Source: a bacterium (lineage in GTDB: Bacteria > Hydrothermota > Tepidihabitantia > Tepidihabitantales > Tepidihabitantaceae). From it: a stretch of 18,232 nt of DNA. The notes below the pieces were generated by a model. It was not told the DNA's origin, made no database searches, and saw only the letters and a list, made by a program, of their open reading frames with translations. The stretch is taken from NCBI GenBank assembly GCA_046485285.1, contig JAWOHE010000054.1:1-18232 (forward strand). Direction: 5' to 3'. The stretch's first letter is position 1. Each line of letters starts with the position of its first letter. Of the stretch, positions 3,155 to 16,120 are shown one piece after another. The position numbers and the translations under genes were made by a program.

Positions 3155-3445
3155 GTGGCGGAACTGAAGAGCTGGCAGGAGCTGCCCTGCGGGGCGATCA
3201 TCGAGGACCAGAAGGCGGTCCTCGACAACAAGACCGGCGCCTGGCGGTCGGCGCGGCCGGTCTGGAACAAGGACACCTGCATCCATTGCCTGACCTGCTG
3301 GATCTACTGCCCGGACGCGTCGATCGTCGTCAAGGACGGGAAGATGACTGGCATCAACTACGACTACTGCAAGGGCTGCGGCATCTGCGCGGCGGTGTGC
3401 CCGCCGAAGGTGCACGCCATCGAGATGGAACAGGAGCGAAAATGA
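3155..3445 (+). CDS. porD: Pyruvate/2-oxoacid:ferredoxin oxidoreductase delta subunit (2x[4Fe-4S])
   Basis: KTGAWRS.RP; CxxCxxCxxxCP twice (CIHCLTCWIYCP and YDYCKGCGICAAVCP). Confidence 0.93.
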   Translation: MAELKSWQELPCGAIIEDQKAVLDNKTGAWRSARPVWNKDTCIHCLTCWIYCPDASIVVKDGKMTGINYDYCKGCGICAAVCPPKVHAIEMEQERK

Positions 3446-4596
3446 TTCTCGCGAAGACCGGGAACGAGGCGCTCGCGTACGCGATGAAGCAGGTCAACCC
3501 GGACGTCGTCGCGGCCTACCCGATAACGCCGTCGACCGAGATCGTCCAGCTCTTCTCGAACTACGTCAACGACGGGCTGGTCGACTCCGAGTTCGTCGCG
3601 GTTGAGAGCGAGCACTCGGCGATGAGCGCCTGCATCGGCTCGGCGGCGTCGGGCTGCCGGACGATGACCGCGACCGCGTCGCAGGGGCTGGCGCTGATGC
3701 ACGAGATGCTGTTCATCGCCGGCGGGCTCCGGCTGCCGATCGTGATGGCGGTGGCGTCGCGCTCGATCTCCTCGCCGCTGAACATCCACGGCGATCACTC
3801 GGACTCGCTGGCCTCGCGCGACTCGGGCTGGATGCAGTTCTTCTGCGAGTCGGTCCAGGAGGGCTACGACACGCTGATCCAGGCGGTGAAGATGGCAGAG
3901 CGGACGTCGCTGCCGGCGATGGTCTGCGTCGACGGGTTCATCCTGTCGCACTGCATGGAGCGCATCGAGAGCTTCGAGGACGAGAAGGTGCGCAAGTGGC
4001 TCGGGCCGTACCAGCCCAACTGGAACCTGCTCAACCTCGCCAAGCCGATACTGGTCGGGCCGGCGACGATGCAGGACTACTACTTCGAGTTCAAGCGCAC
4101 CCAGGTCGAGGGAATGAACAAGGCCCTGCCGGTCATCGAGGCGGTGCAGGAGGAGTTCCGGCAGGAGTTCGGCCGGGGCTACGGGGTCATCGAGGAGTAC
4201 CGCTGCGAGGACGCGACCGCGGCCGTCCTGCTGATGGGCTCGGCCTGCGGGACGATGCGCGAGGCGGTCGACGTCCTGCGCGATAAGGGACACAAGGTCG
4301 GGATGGTCAAGCTGCGGGTGTTCCGGCCCCTGCCGCACCCGGTGCTCAAGCAGGCGCTCAAGCGCTTCAAGACCGTCGCGGTGATGGACCGGATGGACAC
4401 GGTTAGCTCGTGGGGCGGGGCGCTGTTCACCGAGACCGGCTCGGCGCTCTACGACCTCGCCGAGCGGCCGAGGCTCTTGTCCTACGTCTACGGGCTGGGC
4501 GGCAAGGAGTTCTCACCGGCCGACGCGCAGGCGGTGCTCGAGGGCGCGCTCGCCGGCAGGAAGGACGAACTCGTGACCTACGTGGGAGTGAGGTAA
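3442..4596 (+). CDS. porA: Pyruvate/2-oxoacid:ferredoxin oxidoreductase alpha subunit
   Basis: TGNEALA, AAYPITPST, VESEHSAMSACIG, TATASQGLALM, PLNIHGDHSD and YGLGGK. ATGA overlap with the delta stop and AGGAG SD. Confidence 0.94.
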   Translation: MILAKTGNEALAYAMKQVNPDVVAAYPITPSTEIVQLFSNYVNDGLVDSEFVAVESEHSAMSACIGSAASGCRTMTATASQGLALMHEMLFIAGGLRLPIVMAVASRSISSPLNIHGDHSDSLASRDSGWMQFFCESVQEGYDTLIQAVKMAERTSLPAMVCVDGFILSHCMERIESFEDEKVRKWLGPYQPNWNLLNLAKPILVGPATMQDYYFEFKRTQVEGMNKALPVIEAVQEEFRQEFGRGYGVIEEYRCEDATAAVLLMGSACGTMREAVDVLRDKGHKVGMVKLRVFRPLPHPVLKQALKRFKTVAVMDRMDTVSSWGGALFTETGSALYDLAERPRLLSYVYGLGGKEFSPADAQAVLEGALAGRKDELVTYVGVR

Positions 4597-4599
4597 GCG

Positions 4600-5535
4600 A
4601 TGGCACGACTCAAGGATCTCTGTCAGAACCCCGAGCTGTTCTCGAGCGGCCACCGCGCCTGCGCGGGCTGTGGCGAGGCGCTGGCGGTGCGCCAGGTCCT
4701 GCTGGCGGCGAAGCAGCCGGTGGTCGGGATAATGCCGACCGGCTGCACCGAGATTTTCTCGTCGATCTACCCGCACTCGGCGTGGCAGATACCGATGATT
4801 CACACCGCGTTCGAGACCGCGGCCTCGACCGCATCGGGCGTCGAGGCGGCGTACCGGTTCCACCGGAAGATGGGGCTGATGAAGGACGACGTGAAGTTCA
4901 TCGCCTTCGGCGGCGACGGCGCGACCTACGACATCGGGTTCCAGGCGCTGTCGGGCGCGGTCGAGCGCCGGCACAAGTTCCTCTACGTCTGCACCGACAA
5001 CGAGGGTTACATGAACACCGGCATCCAGCGGTCGTCGGCGACGCCCTACGGCGCGCACACGACGACGTCGCCGGCCGGGACCGTCGTCCCGGGCAAGCGC
5101 CAGCACCGCAAGGATATCGTCGAGATAATGATCGCCCACGACATCGCCTACGCCGGCCAGACGACGATCGCGCTCTGGAACGACCTCGTCACCAAGGTCG
5201 GGAAGGCGCTGGCCGCGGACGGGCCGAGCTTCCTCAACGTGCTGGTGCCCTGCCCGCTGGGCTGGGGCCACGCCGGCGACGAGACGGTCAAGCTCTCGCG
5301 CCTCGCGGCGGACACCTGCTTCTGGCCGGTGTACGAGTTCGAGAACGGCAGGTACACGATCAACCACGTCCCGAAGGAGAAGCTCCCGGTCGACGACTTC
5401 ATCAAGCCGCAGGGCCGGTTCCGGCACCTCTACACCCACAAGGGCGGCAAGGAAGTCATTGCCGAACTCCAGCGGCACGTGGACGAGAAGTGGGCGCTGC
5501 TGCAGAAGAAGCAGCAGTGCTTCGGGCGGGACTGA
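4600..5535 (+). CDS. porB: Pyruvate/2-oxoacid:ferredoxin oxidoreductase beta subunit (TPP-binding)
   Basis: GHRACAGCG, TGC, TPP motif GGDGATYDIGFQALSG...DNEGYMNTGIQRS, PCPLGW and QGRFRHL. Confidence 0.94.
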   Translation: MARLKDLCQNPELFSSGHRACAGCGEALAVRQVLLAAKQPVVGIMPTGCTEIFSSIYPHSAWQIPMIHTAFETAASTASGVEAAYRFHRKMGLMKDDVKFIAFGGDGATYDIGFQALSGAVERRHKFLYVCTDNEGYMNTGIQRSSATPYGAHTTTSPAGTVVPGKRQHRKDIVEIMIAHDIAYAGQTTIALWNDLVTKVGKALAADGPSFLNVLVPCPLGWGHAGDETVKLSRLAADTCFWPVYEFENGRYTINHVPKEKLPVDDFIKPQGRFRHLYTHKGGKEVIAELQRHVDEKWALLQKKQQCFGRD

Positions 5536-7635: not shown

Positions 7636-7663
7636 TTGACCGCGACGACGGCCCGGGTAGGCT
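7636..7663 (+). promoter_or_regulatory. Sigma70-type promoter of queH (TTGACC-N16-TAGGCT), leaderless
   Basis: GTG 7669 lies 5 nt after the -10, with no SD. Confidence 0.65.
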
Positions 7664-7668
7664 GGGCT

Positions 7669-8211
7669 GTGAAGCCGCAACTGCTGCTGCACGTCTGCTG
7701 CGGGCCGTGCGCGACCGAGGCACTGCGCCGGCTGGCAGGCGAGTACGCGGTAATCGGCTGTTTCGCCAACCCCAACATCGCGCCCGAGGAGGAGTTCCTG
7801 CGCCGGGCGGCGGCCGCGGAGCAGTTGGCCGCGGCCTGGCACGTGCCGTTCGAGGTCCTGCCCTGCGACCACGGGGCGTTCCTGAGTGCGGTCCGCGGGC
7901 TCGAAGCCGAGCCGGAGGGCGGTCGGCGTTGCGACATCTGCTACCGTCTGCGCCTCGGGGCCGCGGCGGAGCGGGCGCTCGCCTACGGCTGTACCCACCT
8001 TGCGACGACGCTGACGGTCGGACCGCGGAAGCCGGCACTGGCCATCAACCCAATCGGCCACGACGTCTGCCGGAAGCGGGGACTCGAGTTCGTGGCTGGA
8101 GACTGGAAGAAGCAGGACGGCTTCCGGCGCAGCGTGGCGCGGGCCCGGGAACTCGGTCTTTACCGCCAGCACTACTGTGGCTGTGAGTTCTCGCTGCCGC
8201 CAGAAGAGTGA
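7669..8211 (+). CDS. queH: Epoxyqueuosine reductase QueH (DUF208)
   Basis: LLLHVCCGPC, NPNI.P.EE..RR, PEGGRRCDICYRLRL, TTL..GP.K, DWKKQDGF.RS and LYRQHYCGCEFS. Confidence 0.93.
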   Translation: MKPQLLLHVCCGPCATEALRRLAGEYAVIGCFANPNIAPEEEFLRRAAAAEQLAAAWHVPFEVLPCDHGAFLSAVRGLEAEPEGGRRCDICYRLRLGAAAERALAYGCTHLATTLTVGPRKPALAINPIGHDVCRKRGLEFVAGDWKKQDGFRRSVARARELGLYRQHYCGCEFSLPPEE

Positions 8212-8259: not shown

Positions 8260-10230
8260 TCAGCGCACCAGCGTGGTGCGGGTCACCGCTGCGCCCTGCG
8301 GTGTCTCGAGCCGGCAGAGATAGCTGCCGTTCGGGACCGCCACCCCGTCTTCATCGCGGCCGTCCCAGGTCGCGAGGTGCCGGCCGGCGGCAAGCGGCCC
8401 GGCGGCAATCGTGCGGATCTCGCGGCCGCTGACATCGAAAACGACGAGCGTTACCGGCGCGGGAGCCGGGAGTTCGAATGCGAGCGTCGTGCGGCCGCGG
8501 GACGGGCTCGGGCTCGCACGGAGGTCGAATTCGCGCACGCCCGGGCGTGTCGGGCGCTCGTCGGCAACCGCGACCGTCGGGCCGGTGGTCGTGAACCTGA
8601 TGGCCCGGCCGGGCTCGATTCGTGCCGAGCCGCGATGGTAGGCGCCATCGAGCAGGCACTGGATGCCGATGGCGGTCGTCGAGTCGTTGATGCCGACGGT
8701 GGTCGACCCGTAGTTGTTGGCGGTCAGGTACTGGTAGGTGAACACGCTGTTCCCGTCCGGAGCAGCCAGCGTCGTGTCGTAGATGACGACCTGGAACCAC
8801 TCAAACGCGGTCCGGTTCGAGTAGTAGGGCATCGAGTCGTACTGGATGATGAGTCGGTGGTTCGACGCGTCGTGGTGCCACCAGACCCCACCCGAGGTCG
8901 GCGGGTAGAGGTCGTCCCACGCCAGCGCGAGCATCGTCGCCTCGCTGGCGGATGGAAGTCTCGCGTTCGAGTAGGCGGTTCGCGTCGTGTAGCCCGGCCC
9001 GACCCAGCCGTTGCCGCAGACCGAGAACTGGGTGAACCTGCGGCCGTAGAAGTAGAAAGGCCCGAACGCGGTCGGGAGGTCGAACTGGACCGTTTGGTCG
9101 TCCGAGGTGATGGCGAGCCGCGTGCCGACCCCGGCGATGTCGAGCCACTCGAAGGTCGGCGCCTGGGAGTAGCCGGAATCGGCGTCATCGTAGGCCCAGT
9201 AGAGGGCCGGCTCGCGCGGGCCGTCAGGGGTCGGGTCGATTGACCGCAGCTCGCCGACCGTTACGTGGAGCCGGAGCGTGTCGCAGTAGTCCCCGTCGCC
9301 GGTGACGAAGAGCGTGCAGGTCACCCGGGTTTCGATCGGCATCGAGGCGTCGACCGAGACCCGGAACGGGCTCGAGCTGTTGACCCTCGTCTCGCCGGCC
9401 GGGATGTCGCCGTACTCGGCGACCGAGTCGGTGAAGACGAGCAGGCCGTGGCCGGAGCGGATGACCGCCCGGGCGCTGCCGACGCCGGCGTTGCCGGCGT
9501 TGCGGAGCGCGGCGAGCAGGCCTCCGGTCTCGCCCGGGTCGAAGCGGCCGTTGCCGTTACCGCCGGGCGGGCTGTCGAGGATGGTTGTGCCGGTACAGAA
9601 GAGGTACGGGCCGGAGGACAGGTTGGTGAGGGAGACGTCGTCGGCGAAGACCTTCGCCGAGGGCGTCCCTCAACCGTCGTAAGTGTAGCTGAAGAGCGCG
9701 ACCTCGAGCTGGGCGACGTCGCCGGGGTTGACGCCGGGGAGGTTGGCGGTGATCTCCTGCGCGACGTCGAGCGAGTACTCCGCCCAGTCCGGGGCCGTGA
9801 TGCGGTGGAGGCTGAGCGTCGGCGAAGGCACCCAGTTCGCGTAGGTCGAGTAGTACCACCGGGTCTCGCCGAGGGCGGTCCCCGCGCCGTCCAGATACCG
9901 GACGCTGAAGCAGGCGGCCGGCCAGCAGGTCGACACCCCGCCGGCCTCCTCGAACTTCGCCCAGAACGACAGGCTGAGCTGGATGCCGGGTGTGACGACG
10001 GTCTGGCTGAGCCGGCTCCAGCCCGGGTTGTCGTACTGGTAGGTCATTGCTTCGTAGTCCGGGTCGGGATGGTAGTCGATCGCCCGGTCGCTCTGATGGG
10101 TGCCGTAGCCGCTGTCGGTGTGGGTCCAGCCGGTCGCCAGCGGCTGCTCGAAGTCGCCGTTGACGAGCAGCTCCTGGGCCAGTCCGACCGACAGCGCCAG
10201 CACCGCGAGCACGGTCAGGGTCTTTCTCAT
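8260..10230 (-). CDS. Secreted multidomain protein, 656 aa, with in-frame UGA at codon 187 (candidate selenocysteine): signal peptide, CBM4/9-like jelly-roll, beta-rich Ca-motif domains, C-terminal FlgD-Ig/T9SS-type sorting domain
   Basis: AAAGGAG SD before ATG 10230. Signal peptide MRKTLTVLAVLALSVGLA, then ELLVNGDFE. TGA at 9672-9670 is followed in frame by 109 stop-free codons (GTPSAKVFADDVSLTN...DSPPGGNGNGRFDPGETG...) that join the track ORF 9342..8260. That ORF ends in SPSP...VFDVSGREIRTI...WDGRDEDGVAVPNGSYLCRL. Confidence 0.82.
9627..9672 (-). promoter_or_regulatory. Candidate bacterial SECIS stem-loop immediately 3' of the in-frame UGA
   Basis: mRNA: UGA GGGACG CCC UCGGCGAA GGUC UUCGCCGA CGA CGUCUC CCUCA. 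Perfect 8-bp upper stem, 4-nt loop beginning with G located 17 nt after UGA, and a lower stem. Confidence 0.72.
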
Positions 10231-10254
10231 TGCTTTCTCCTTTGCGCCTGACTC

Positions 10255-10282
10255 AGTGTAGGCGGGCACCGGCCGGCGTCAA
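10255..10282 (-). promoter_or_regulatory. Sigma70-type promoter of the UGA-containing gene (TTGACG-N16-TACACT)
   Basis: Minus-strand -35 at 10282-10277 and -10 at 10260-10255; short leader with SD. Confidence 0.7.
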
Positions 10283-14965: not shown

Positions 14966-14993
14966 TTGACCGGTGCGGAGGCGGTCCTAGAAT
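14966..14993 (+). promoter_or_regulatory. Sigma70-type promoter (TTGACC-N16-TAGAAT), probably leaderless
   Basis: In-frame GTG at 15002 lies 8 nt after the -10, with no SD. Confidence 0.65.
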
Positions 14994-15001
14994 CGGGCCG
15001 A

Positions 15002-16120
15002 GTGGCGCCGAATCCTGTCCGGGTCGTCCGGGGCCTCGGCCGACTGCGCTTCGGGCGCGGGCCGGGGATGCTGCCGCGCGGCCGCCAGTTCGTCGAGATG
15101 CTCGCCGGCGCGGTCCAGGGCGGGTTCACCCCGCTCGAGTACCAGCTCTACGGCTTCGGCCGGCGCGACCGCGACCGGTCGGGCTACGTTCCTCTGCGCT
15201 GGATCGAGCGTGAGTTCCGCGCCCGGCTCAACCCGCCGGAGGCGGCGCGGGTGCTCAAGGACAAGCTCGAGTTCTTCCGGTCCTGCCGGGCGCGCGGACT
15301 GCCGGCGGCGCGGGTGCTCGCGCTGGTCGGGTCGGGAATGGCACCCGGGGGCGTCGCGGCGCTCGGTGACGCCGCCGCGCTGGTGGAGTTCCTCGCCGGG
15401 CTGGCGCCGGGCCGGTTCGTCGCCAAGCCGGCCGGCTCGGTCGGCGGCAAGGGCGTGATGCTGTTCGACCGCCGGCCGGACGGCTCGTTCGCGGACGCGA
15501 CCGGCGAACTCACCCCGGCCGCGCTCTGGGCCCGGATGGCCGGGGACATCGAGCGGCAGGCGCGTGAAGACGCGCGTACCGGCTACCTCCTGCAGGAGTT
15601 CGTACGGCCCGACCCGGCGATGAACCCGGGCGGCGGCACCGCGCTCAACACCGTCCGCATCGCGACCCTGCTCGACCCCGGCGGCGAGGCCCGGCTCGAC
15701 TTCGCGATGCTCCGGCTGGCGCGCCCCGGCGCGCCGAGCGACAACCTGCACCAGGGCGGGACCGTGGCCGGCATCGACCTCGAGACCGGTGCGATCCGCG
15801 CGCCGGCGTGGGGCTACGAGACGCCCGATGGGCCGTGGCTCGCGCCCCGGTCGGCTGACCCGGCCGCGCTCTTCCGGGCCGGGCGGCTGCCGCGCTGGGA
15901 CGAGCTCGCGGCGCTGGCCCGGGCGTGCGCGCTGGCTCTGCCCGGCGCGCGGTCGGTGGGCTGGGACATCGTGCTCGCGGACACCGGGCCGGTGGTCATC
16001 GAGGGCAATGACAACTGGGACATGGTCATCGCGCAGGTGCTGGACGGTCCCTACCTGACCCCGATGCGACGGGAACTGCTCACCGAGCTCGGCCTGCGCC
16101 TGCCTGCCCGCGTCGCTTGA
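15002..16120 (+). CDS. Sugar-transfer-associated ATP-grasp family protein
   Basis: LKDKLEF, FVAKPAGSVGGKGV, YLLQEFV, LNTVRIATL, DNLHQGG..AGIDLETG, LPRWDE and SVGWDIVLADTGPVVIEGN. Confidence 0.88.
   Translation: MAPNPVRVVRGLGRLRFGRGPGMLPRGRQFVEMLAGAVQGGFTPLEYQLYGFGRRDRDRSGYVPLRWIEREFRARLNPPEAARVLKDKLEFFRSCRARGLPAARVLALVGSGMAPGGVAALGDAAALVEFLAGLAPGRFVAKPAGSVGGKGVMLFDRRPDGSFADATGELTPAALWARMAGDIERQAREDARTGYLLQEFVRPDPAMNPGGGTALNTVRIATLLDPGGEARLDFAMLRLARPGAPSDNLHQGGTVAGIDLETGAIRAPAWGYETPDGPWLAPRSADPAALFRAGRLPRWDELAALARACALALPGARSVGWDIVLADTGPVVIEGNDNWDMVIAQVLDGPYLTPMRRELLTELGLRLPARVA

Follow-up and report, generated by a model that had tools for sequence, protein, structure and literature searches.

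The 18,232-nucleotide stretch of DNA analysed here (NCBI GenBank assembly GCA_046485285.1, contig JAWOHE010000054.1, hereafter the window) carries on its minus strand a gene with an in-frame TGA at positions 9672-9670. This TGA is almost certainly a selenocysteine (Sec) codon in an exported surface protein that contains a domain resembling carbohydrate-binding modules (CBM) and belongs to a large multi-copy family. When minus-strand open reading frames (ORFs) were listed from the first ATG, GTG or TTG after each stop, the gene appeared as two, 9670..10269 and 8260..9342. A preliminary description made from the sequence had placed both in one frame split by the TGA, and translation of 10269..8260 (670 positions) bears this out, the internal TGA and the terminal TGA at 8262-8260 being its only stops. 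The same description had noted that the codons following the internal TGA offer no start; indeed, ATG, GTG and TTG are all absent from the 109 codons 9669..9343, and the next ORF opens at 9342. The start of the gene is likely ATG 10230, the upstream in-frame GTG 10269 being less favoured; orthologues align from about residue 10-20 in the GTG 10269 numbering through to the end. The internal TGA is position 200 counted from the GTG and residue 187 counted from the ATG.

TGA serves as an ordinary stop elsewhere, as had also been described. It ends five of the ten window ORFs checked, the selenoprotein gene included. In the source genome (88% complete, 102 contigs, 69% G+C) it is the commonest ordinary stop, closing 520 of the stop-to-stop frames of at least 500 codons, with TAG closing 327 and TAA 54. 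Among 28 orthologues, six, including the window gene, use TGA as the terminal stop.

Conservation of the internal codon was assessed by a search of 272 genomes from the phylum with the read-through protein as query, the recurrence of TGA in homologues being a check that the preliminary description had proposed. The homologous codon was TGA in 28/28 orthologous loci, within the motif [S/G]G-U-G[T/A/G]P, and these genes held no further internal stop. The frame downstream was open and conserved for about 470 codons in all 28 orthologues, with 39-58% identity over the full length. The listed full-length matches carried one TGA each, except one with two TGA and one with one TGA and one TAG. The N-terminal domain alone (P0032) found matches in 107/272 genomes and 47/110 genera; among the 150 N-terminal domain matches listed, 149 had exactly one TGA, and the one remaining stops at residue 122, where its contig ends. 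All 65 distinct copies checked at the DNA level showed a single TGA at the site and no further stop, and the Sec column was invariant in 45 aligned domains, which are 32-67% identical to the window domain. Conservation of the TGA is far beyond chance.

The candidate selenoprotein of the preliminary description keeps its predicted Sec, but it is not the single odd gene it had seemed: it is one copy of a large family. The source genome holds six copies with the TGA in the same place, located on contigs C6 (the window), C44 (two copies in tandem, 21593-23431 and 23508-24536, both minus strand), C13 (291-1313, plus strand), C58 (445-2730, minus strand) and C87 (9580-10323, minus strand). Up to nine matches were found in one genome. 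Tandem arrays also occur elsewhere, with three copies inside 8 kb at locus L095 (G146:C5). The public matches bear the organism names candidate division WOR-3 or simply 'bacterium', and these names point to candidate division WOR-3 as the group to which the family belongs.

The TGA is followed by a conserved RNA hairpin resembling a bacterial selenocysteine insertion sequence (SECIS). In the window copy the core hairpin begins 11 nt past the UGA and extends to 8 bp when 9660-9659 and 9642-9641 are added; the predicted fold of 48 nt has an energy of -25.1 kcal/mol, and that of 91 nt a z-score of -1.95. We aligned 64 distinct 54-nt segments, each from the TGA onward, in which the hairpin starts 11-20 nt past the TGA. 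Its six base pairs are formed in 99.5% of the 384 cells of the alignment (64 sequences). Changes on both sides of a pair occur at four of the six pairs, in 37 cells, and the fifth pair switches from A-U to G-C in 26 sequences. None of 500 shuffles reached the observed covariation score; sliding the partner strand by 1-3 columns as a control lowered pairing to only 19-65%. RNAalifold independently returned the identical six pairs. The apical loop is GGUC in 62/64 segments, and it lies 17 nt from the UGA in 40 sequences, 20 nt in 21, 23 nt in two and 26 nt in one. The minimum free energy (MFE) of the 48-nt fold is -7.5 kcal/mol or lower in 64/64 sequences, and that of the bare 16-nt hairpin in 31/64. 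The model of bacterial SECIS (bSECIS) elements, in the portion of a 2026 review that describes it, has a loop of 3-9 nt, a stem of 4-16 bp, a spacing of 16-37 nt and an MFE of at most -7.5 kcal/mol (PMC13188914). It also wants a G within the first two loop positions (PMC13188914). The family elements lie inside the bounds so described, with a 4-nt loop, a stem of 6-8 bp, a distance of 17-26 nt and the 48-nt MFE given above.

The hairpin has left its mark on codon usage and on the protein. Synonymous sites within the stem are frozen: Ala is encoded by GCG in 63/65 copies (background 25%), Val by GTC in 63/65 (background 41%) and a second Ala by GCC in 59/65 (background 39%). The Asp codon just beyond the stem is unconstrained, with 32 GAC and 32 GAT. 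Covariation in the stem is mirrored in the protein, where AKVFAD becomes AEVSAD or ARVLAD. The last strand of the domain, with its motif A-[K/E/R]-V-[F/S/L]-A, is a clean example from nature of a peptide motif imposed by an RNA element. A search of Rfam with 9500-9800 at E up to 10 returned only chance snoRNA and miRNA matches and is uninformative on bacterial SECIS elements. We also tried a genome-wide scan for an open frame with a TGA and a GGU-loop hairpin as a census of the selenoproteome, and rejected it as such; its 143 matches were mostly off-frame noise in this G+C-rich genome (69%), although the same scan recovered 5/6 copies of the family.

The source genome encodes a complete Sec machinery, for which the preliminary description had suggested a search. 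The tRNA-Sec scores 73 bits and is called SeC with anticodon tca by ARAGORN, and selA, selB and selD score 538, 357 and 335 bits, respectively, all components being above their curated cut-offs. Across the phylum the domain and the machinery go together. We cross-tabulated selA, which is present in 122/272 genomes, with the domain; related genomes are not independent, hence no statistic is given. The domain is present in 101 genomes with selA and in six without it, and absent from 21 genomes with selA and from 144 without it. All 12 taxonomic families that carry the domain also carry selA, and families lacking selA have zero copies of the domain (for example f6 0/11, f15 0/14 and f28 0/12). 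Among the six domain-bearing genomes without a selA call, four show other Sec genes; G221 and G223 have selB and tRNA-Sec, and G145 has tRNA-Sec together with a selA fragment at a contig end. The alpha subunit of formate dehydrogenase is the most widespread bacterial selenoprotein. This subunit (FdhA, TIGR01553) was not found in the 88%-complete source genome, where the best match scored 18 bits, and it seems to be absent despite the complete Sec machinery. As a separate observation, selD is itself a selenoprotein gene (G000 C37 9674-10585, minus strand) with a TGA at 10570-10568 in the motif SCAG-U-ASKLGK, and selB directly adjoins it (C37 10662-12542, minus strand). Downstream of this TGA comes a hairpin, GGCGC-AGUUG-GCGCU, whose loop lies 22 nt from the UGA and which also falls within the bSECIS model as described in the review (PMC13188914).

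Further homologues were collected from 1.84 billion representatives with a profile built on the 45 domains. The search returned 484 proteins at E up to 0.001, and the best 150 were classified. Among these best 150, 119 have their own C-terminus at profile position ~186, 14 are N-terminal fragments and 17 read through the site. The 119 C-termini at ~186 are the signature of gene callers halting at the TGA. The Sec column of the 17 read-through representatives holds Cys in P0051 and P0058 and is ambiguous in P0111, at the protein level only. The Cys homologues that the preliminary description had hoped for are therefore at hand (2-3/17), albeit rare. Several non-TGA homologues lack the stem-encoding AxVxAD motif and have AEVCVD, ARAIVD or AAWAYAD in its place, a loss to be expected of a motif that an RNA constraint linked to the TGA would keep in being.

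Public annotation splits the gene in two, as the preliminary description had predicted. The N-terminal half is recorded as a 'hypothetical protein' of ~186 aa (nearly all of 111 matches), and the C-terminal half as a 'T9SS type A sorting domain-containing protein' of 426-461 aa, T9SS standing for type IX secretion system. The error is a systematic one: hundreds of ~186-aa 'hypothetical proteins' and their neighbours with T9SS tails would be the halves of single genes, and at least 119 clusters at 50% identity end at the site in public data.

The features of the gene are collected in the table. The N-terminal domain, modelled by AlphaFold2 on 45 sequences, is a beta-sandwich in which the Sec lies in a turn (185-190) between strands 174-184 and 191-203. 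The last strand lies after the UGA, so that the sandwich is incomplete without the part that follows the codon. The preliminary description had recognised ELLVNGDFE as the opening of the domain and AKVFADDVSL, past the TGA, as its closing strand, and the model places strand 191-203 in the same sandwich. It had likewise put a signal peptide before the UGA and a sorting domain after it, in agreement with the signal-peptide-like N-terminus MRKTLTVLAVLALSVGLAQ and with a Pfam FlgD_ig match (PF13860) at residues 592-654 (E 3.7e-14; 52.9 bits, cut-off 27). Of the 119 representatives that end at the site among the best 150 of 484, 90 begin with a hydrophobic run. Foldseek comparison with the PDB returned CBM11, CBM16, CBM22, CBM61, a porphyran-binding CBM, sugar-binding FBA domains and phage tailspike domains, with E from 2.5e-9 to ~3e-6 and template-modelling (TM) scores, on the query, of 0.37-0.55; for CBM11, CBM16, CBM22 and CBM61 the E values were 1e-8 to 1e-6 and the TM scores (query) 0.44-0.50. 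The Pfam family CBM_4_9 (PF02018) stayed below its gathering cut-off (12.7 against 25.9 bits, E 0.17, residues 33-109), so the label 'CBM-like' rests on fold comparison. The full-length AlphaFold2 model was built on 21 orthologues and has a mean predicted local distance difference test (pLDDT) of 75. One relative, P0019, has a precomputed Pfam NIDO match; NIDO was not found in the window protein.

Table. Features of the selenoprotein gene and its predicted product in the window (positions of the 18,232-nt stretch; pTM, predicted template-modelling score).
Feature	Position	Strand	Remarks
Whole selenoprotein gene	8260..10230	-	ATG 10230-10228 to TGA 8262-8260; 656 aa with Sec187
Predicted signal peptide, residues 1-19, MRKTLTVLAVLALSVGLAQ	10174..10230	-	helix 2-16 in the model; cleavage site by eye
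Sec-containing CBM-like beta-sandwich, residues 20-205	9616..10173	-	AlphaFold2 pLDDT 92.9, pTM 0.87
UGA read, almost certainly, as Sec187	9670..9672	-	context SYTYDG-U-GTPSAK; TGA in 65/65 copies; invariant column in 45-domain alignment
Full predicted SECIS-like element	9627..9672	-	lower helix of UGA region and downstream UCUCCCUCA, predicted for the window copy
SECIS core hairpin	9643..9658	-	GGCGAA (9658-9653), loop GGUC (9652-9649), UUCGCC (9648-9643)
Ig-like (immunoglobulin-like) all-beta domain, residues 210-325	9256..9603	-	full-length AlphaFold2 model, pLDDT blocks ~69-89
Conserved beta-rich middle domain, residues 345-547	8590..9198	-	low-confidence model, pLDDT 27-83
C-terminal FlgD-Ig-like / T9SS-type sorting domain, residues 570-656	8263..8523	-	PF13860; sandwich 570-654
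Terminal TGA, read as stop	8260..8262	-	orthologues have TAA, TAG or TGA in this position

The region of the protein from about residue 215 on (to ~669) has matches in 269/272 genomes, behind longer and unrelated N-termini. The frames that share the C-terminal ~450 residues are open for 1000-1700 aa, and many are paralogues with other heads. The C-terminal ~450 residues (8263-9603, minus strand) have the look of a display stalk that many surface proteins share. Among the paralogues of the source genome the Sec domain is found in different contexts: fused to the same stalk (C58), joined to a different C-terminal region in a 613-aa frame (C44), followed by a sorting tail only in proteins of ~300 aa (C44 and C13), and alone (C87). 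From these arrangements we read the Sec domain as a displayed 'head'. About 30 further ORFs in the source genome carry similar tails, C-terminal domains that resemble the tail of PorU. A search for SprA gave no match in the source genome, but none in 14 control genomes either.

The surroundings of the Sec residue vary within the family. Among the 119 representatives that end at the site, 83 have Cys as the last residue, which gives C-U, and 92 have Cys within the last five residues. Of the DNA-checked copies, 15/65 read C-U, including the paralogue on C87 (GGC-U-G), and some read C-U-x-x-x-C. The window subfamily has G-U-G without a vicinal Cys and keeps a distal Cys in a TCWP motif. In the 65 copies the TCW Cys is present in 48 and a Cys at position -1 in 15, with both in two and neither in four. 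In the 119 representatives, 82 have only the Cys at -1, 16 only the TCW Cys, one has both and 20 have neither. The two look like alternative partner cysteines, and we put forward the hypothesis that the TCWP Cys (Cys102) is the likeliest partner of Sec187 in the window subfamily.

Neighbouring genes in the window encode 2-oxoacid:ferredoxin oxidoreductase subunits (3286-5535, plus strand; POR_N/PFOR_II and TPP_enzyme_C), the epoxyqueuosine reductase QueH (7636-8211, plus strand) and a sugar-transfer-associated ATP-grasp protein (14966-16120, plus strand). A UPF0158 protein and an FG-GAP protein are also present. These neighbours are unrelated housekeeping genes and gave no functional clue, and none of them suggests an operon with the selenoprotein gene.

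In the reading that we favour, SelB carrying Sec-tRNA(Sec) would be recruited by the hairpin 11 nt downstream of the codon (GGCGAA-GGUC-UUCGCC), and insertion of Sec at the UGA would give a precursor of 656 aa. The precursor would be exported through its signal peptide and displayed on the surface or released, probably by way of the FlgD-Ig/T9SS-type C-terminal domain. Based on the model, Sec187 would be exposed, in the turn that joins the final two strands of the N-terminal head. Its selenol may be the working group of the head, vicinal to Cys (C-U) in most family members. Outside the cell it may take part in redox chemistry or join Cys in a selenenylsulfide, or it may bind soft metals or sulfur species. 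What the analysis shows is the conserved TGA, the RNA structure, the Sec machinery, the joint occurrence of machinery and domain, and the fold; the decoding of the UGA as Sec is well supported, and from these findings we infer that Sec is inserted. SelB-dependent Sec at UGA187, a surface-displayed CBM-like head and a Cys-paired working selenol, taken jointly, form a reading that we hold to be highly probable. The preliminary description had put Sec187 in an extracellular domain without a thioredoxin fold; the machinery, the TGA, the hairpin and the Cys homologues back the Sec, and the extracellular location we infer from the signal peptide and the tail.

Several observations weigh against this reading. 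The public full-length protein P0002 (656 aa) has W at the site. Two domain-bearing genomes, G128 (96% complete) and G160 (76% complete), yielded no convincing Sec machinery. Cys homologues are unusually few for a selenoprotein family, most non-TGA homologues carrying A, V, I, D, Q, M, L, G, N, S or a gap. All three facts would suit a UGA that is read through as Trp, Cys, Gly or Arg by a near-cognate or suppressor tRNA, with the hairpin as a general stimulator of read-through. We consider such decoding very unlikely. The W of P0002 falls on a codon that reads TGA in the DNA of locus L043 (G179:C51), whose read-through product is 98.8% identical to P0002, and it is probably the outcome of a table-4 gene call by a metagenomic caller on a short contig; calls of this kind can mask Sec codons as Trp. 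TGA is the main ordinary stop of the organism and also ends the same gene, the domain tracks selA in 101/107 genomes and is missing from selA-free families, and the hairpin agrees with the SelB-type SECIS model, as far as the review describes it, with G-G opening a 4-nt loop at 17-26 nt. If the codon is Sec, the near lack of Cys-only relatives implies that selenium itself is needed at this position. A further difficulty comes from G133, which carries the domain at C1:1645576-1647900 on a single contig: only a 114-residue piece of selA lies immediately upstream of its intact selB, and no tRNA-Sec reached the cut-off. This genome could be a frameshifted assembly or come from a lineage that is shedding the Sec trait. 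The export and partner-Cys parts of the reading meet difficulties of their own. The T9SS type A tail model TIGR04183 scores 19 bits, under its cut-off of 23, and two PorU-like ORFs of the C25 peptidase family reach 298 and 258 bits against a cut-off of 420; these ORFs are ~1300 aa long (C96 13894-17025, plus strand; C28 1409-4624, minus strand), and the match covers most of the model. Most of the complementarity between the TCW Cys and the Cys at -1 traces to phylogeny: a test on a FastTree tree had just four independent pairs to use, with a median p of 0.25.

The UGA might instead be a true stop that yields a secreted fragment of ~186 aa, the part downstream being untranslated or re-initiated and the hairpin being a regulatory or stability element. 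Gene callers do annotate such proteins (nearly all of the 111 public matches and 119 of the best 150), and since bacterial Sec insertion is inefficient, some product ending at the UGA is likely in any case. As a full account of the gene, however, termination is scarcely credible. It would leave about 470 conserved open codons downstream in 28/28 orthologues (39-58% identity), the first 109 of them without a start codon, and it would cut off the last strand of the sandwich. The five paralogues all run past the UGA through that strand, short ones included, two of which carry a sorting tail (C44 and C13), and the domain and selA occur together. The remaining rival, a decaying gene whose TGA arose by nonsense mutation or through an error in sequencing or assembly, has nothing in its favour beyond the bare presence of a stop, and its probability is negligible. 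It is excluded by the TGA in 28/28 orthologues, in 149 of the 150 matches listed and in 65/65 copies, which come from dozens of independent assemblies and include six paralogues in the source genome; the gene is otherwise free of stops and frameshifts.

With the Sec reading retained, the question arises what the family means for the organisms that carry it. The notion that this family, rather than formate dehydrogenase, is the main use of Sec in WOR-3 lineages and a reason why the machinery is kept, by virtue of an exported reactive selenol head, draws on the failure to find FdhA and on the six family copies in the source genome; we regard it as tentative and, on balance, somewhat doubtful. 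If it is true, cells send out a selenol on the scaffold of a binding module, in most cases within a vicinal Cys-Sec pair, and the selenol would work there with no obvious extracellular reductant. Possible targets would then be elemental sulfur or polysulfide, chalcophile metals or metalloids, or substrates to be attached covalently. The family gives a way into the physiology of an uncultured phylum and into the demand for selenium where it lives.

The family appears to have escaped recognition as a selenoprotein so far. No model of NCBIfam 20.0 matched the domain, the best score (16.9 bits) belonging to an unrelated family and falling over the signal peptide. None of the 119 prokaryotic selenoprotein families in Table 1 of the 2026 review has such a fold, motif and architecture (PMC13188914). 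The passages on deep-Sep do not mention the family, and a term search of BSepDB returned 0 matches. Searches of the full text of articles found no description of it. The review cites a groundwater metagenome-assembled genome (MAG) study as reporting 'potentially novel candidate selenoproteins' (PMC13188914), and the family could have been listed earlier in that study or in the deep-Sep or BSepDB supplements.

Comparison with known systems shows where the family is familiar and where it departs from precedent. The minimal element of E. coli fdhF has a GGUC loop closed by an A-U pair, 11 nt from the UGA; this likeness makes it practicable to assay the hairpin with a reporter in E. coli. The window gene shares with SelB- and SECIS-dependent genes such as fdhF an in-frame UGA, a stem-loop in the coding region and a small loop with G-G/U at 16-37 nt, as outlined in the published model, and tRNA-Sec, selA, selB and selD are present in the source genome. 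Its likeness to the CBM4/9/11/16/22/61 modules is seen in the fold (Foldseek probability 1.00, E to 1e-8, TM on the target up to 0.71), in the NGDFE opening at the N-terminus and in the UniRef name of a relative, 'CBM-cenC domain-containing protein'. Unlike those modules, it has an invariant Sec in the last hairpin loop and a sub-threshold Pfam CBM_4_9 match; the likeness is structural and does not imply sugar binding. The signal peptide, the FlgD-Ig-like C-terminal sandwich (PF13860) and the ~30 similar tails recall T9SS cargo, whereas the TIGR04183 and PorU scores under their cut-offs leave the export route putative.

Vicinal Cys-Sec pairs are known from animal thioredoxin reductase, which has a GCUG motif. 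Most members of the present family, the C87 paralogue included, share the C-U pair, whereas the window copy has G-U-G and the distal TCWP Cys, and the fold and location differ from those of the vicinal Cys-Sec selenoproteins. Table 1 of the review lists SaoL, HgcA, SaoC, MbdU and KCU-star as selenoproteins with a 'CU' motif (PMC13188914). The same table includes predicted selenoprotein families whose names point to the envelope, namely the TonB-dependent receptor of FCYXU type, the GSU2204 outer-membrane beta-barrel and the ExtKL cytochrome (PMC13188914). The preliminary description had proposed a novel secreted selenoprotein; the family is indeed absent from that table, but a location outside the cytoplasm has published precedent in these envelope-named families, judged from their names only. 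As named there, they have other folds, and not one of them combines a soluble, displayed binding-module head with a tail for sorting. According to section 7 of the review, most of the known bacterial selenoproteins have a thioredoxin fold and carry redox motifs (PMC13188914). The window protein has neither a thioredoxin-like fold nor that of a metal-cofactor enzyme, and no family in the review's table is related to it. In contrast to the thioredoxin-fold selenoproteins, it represents a large and diverse family that has the fold of a binding module and carries signals for export. If the bolder notion of an exported selenol as the main use of Sec is true, the family would be a new functional class of selenoprotein, in which the Sec serves a reactive 'head' on display and not a redox enzyme inside the cell.

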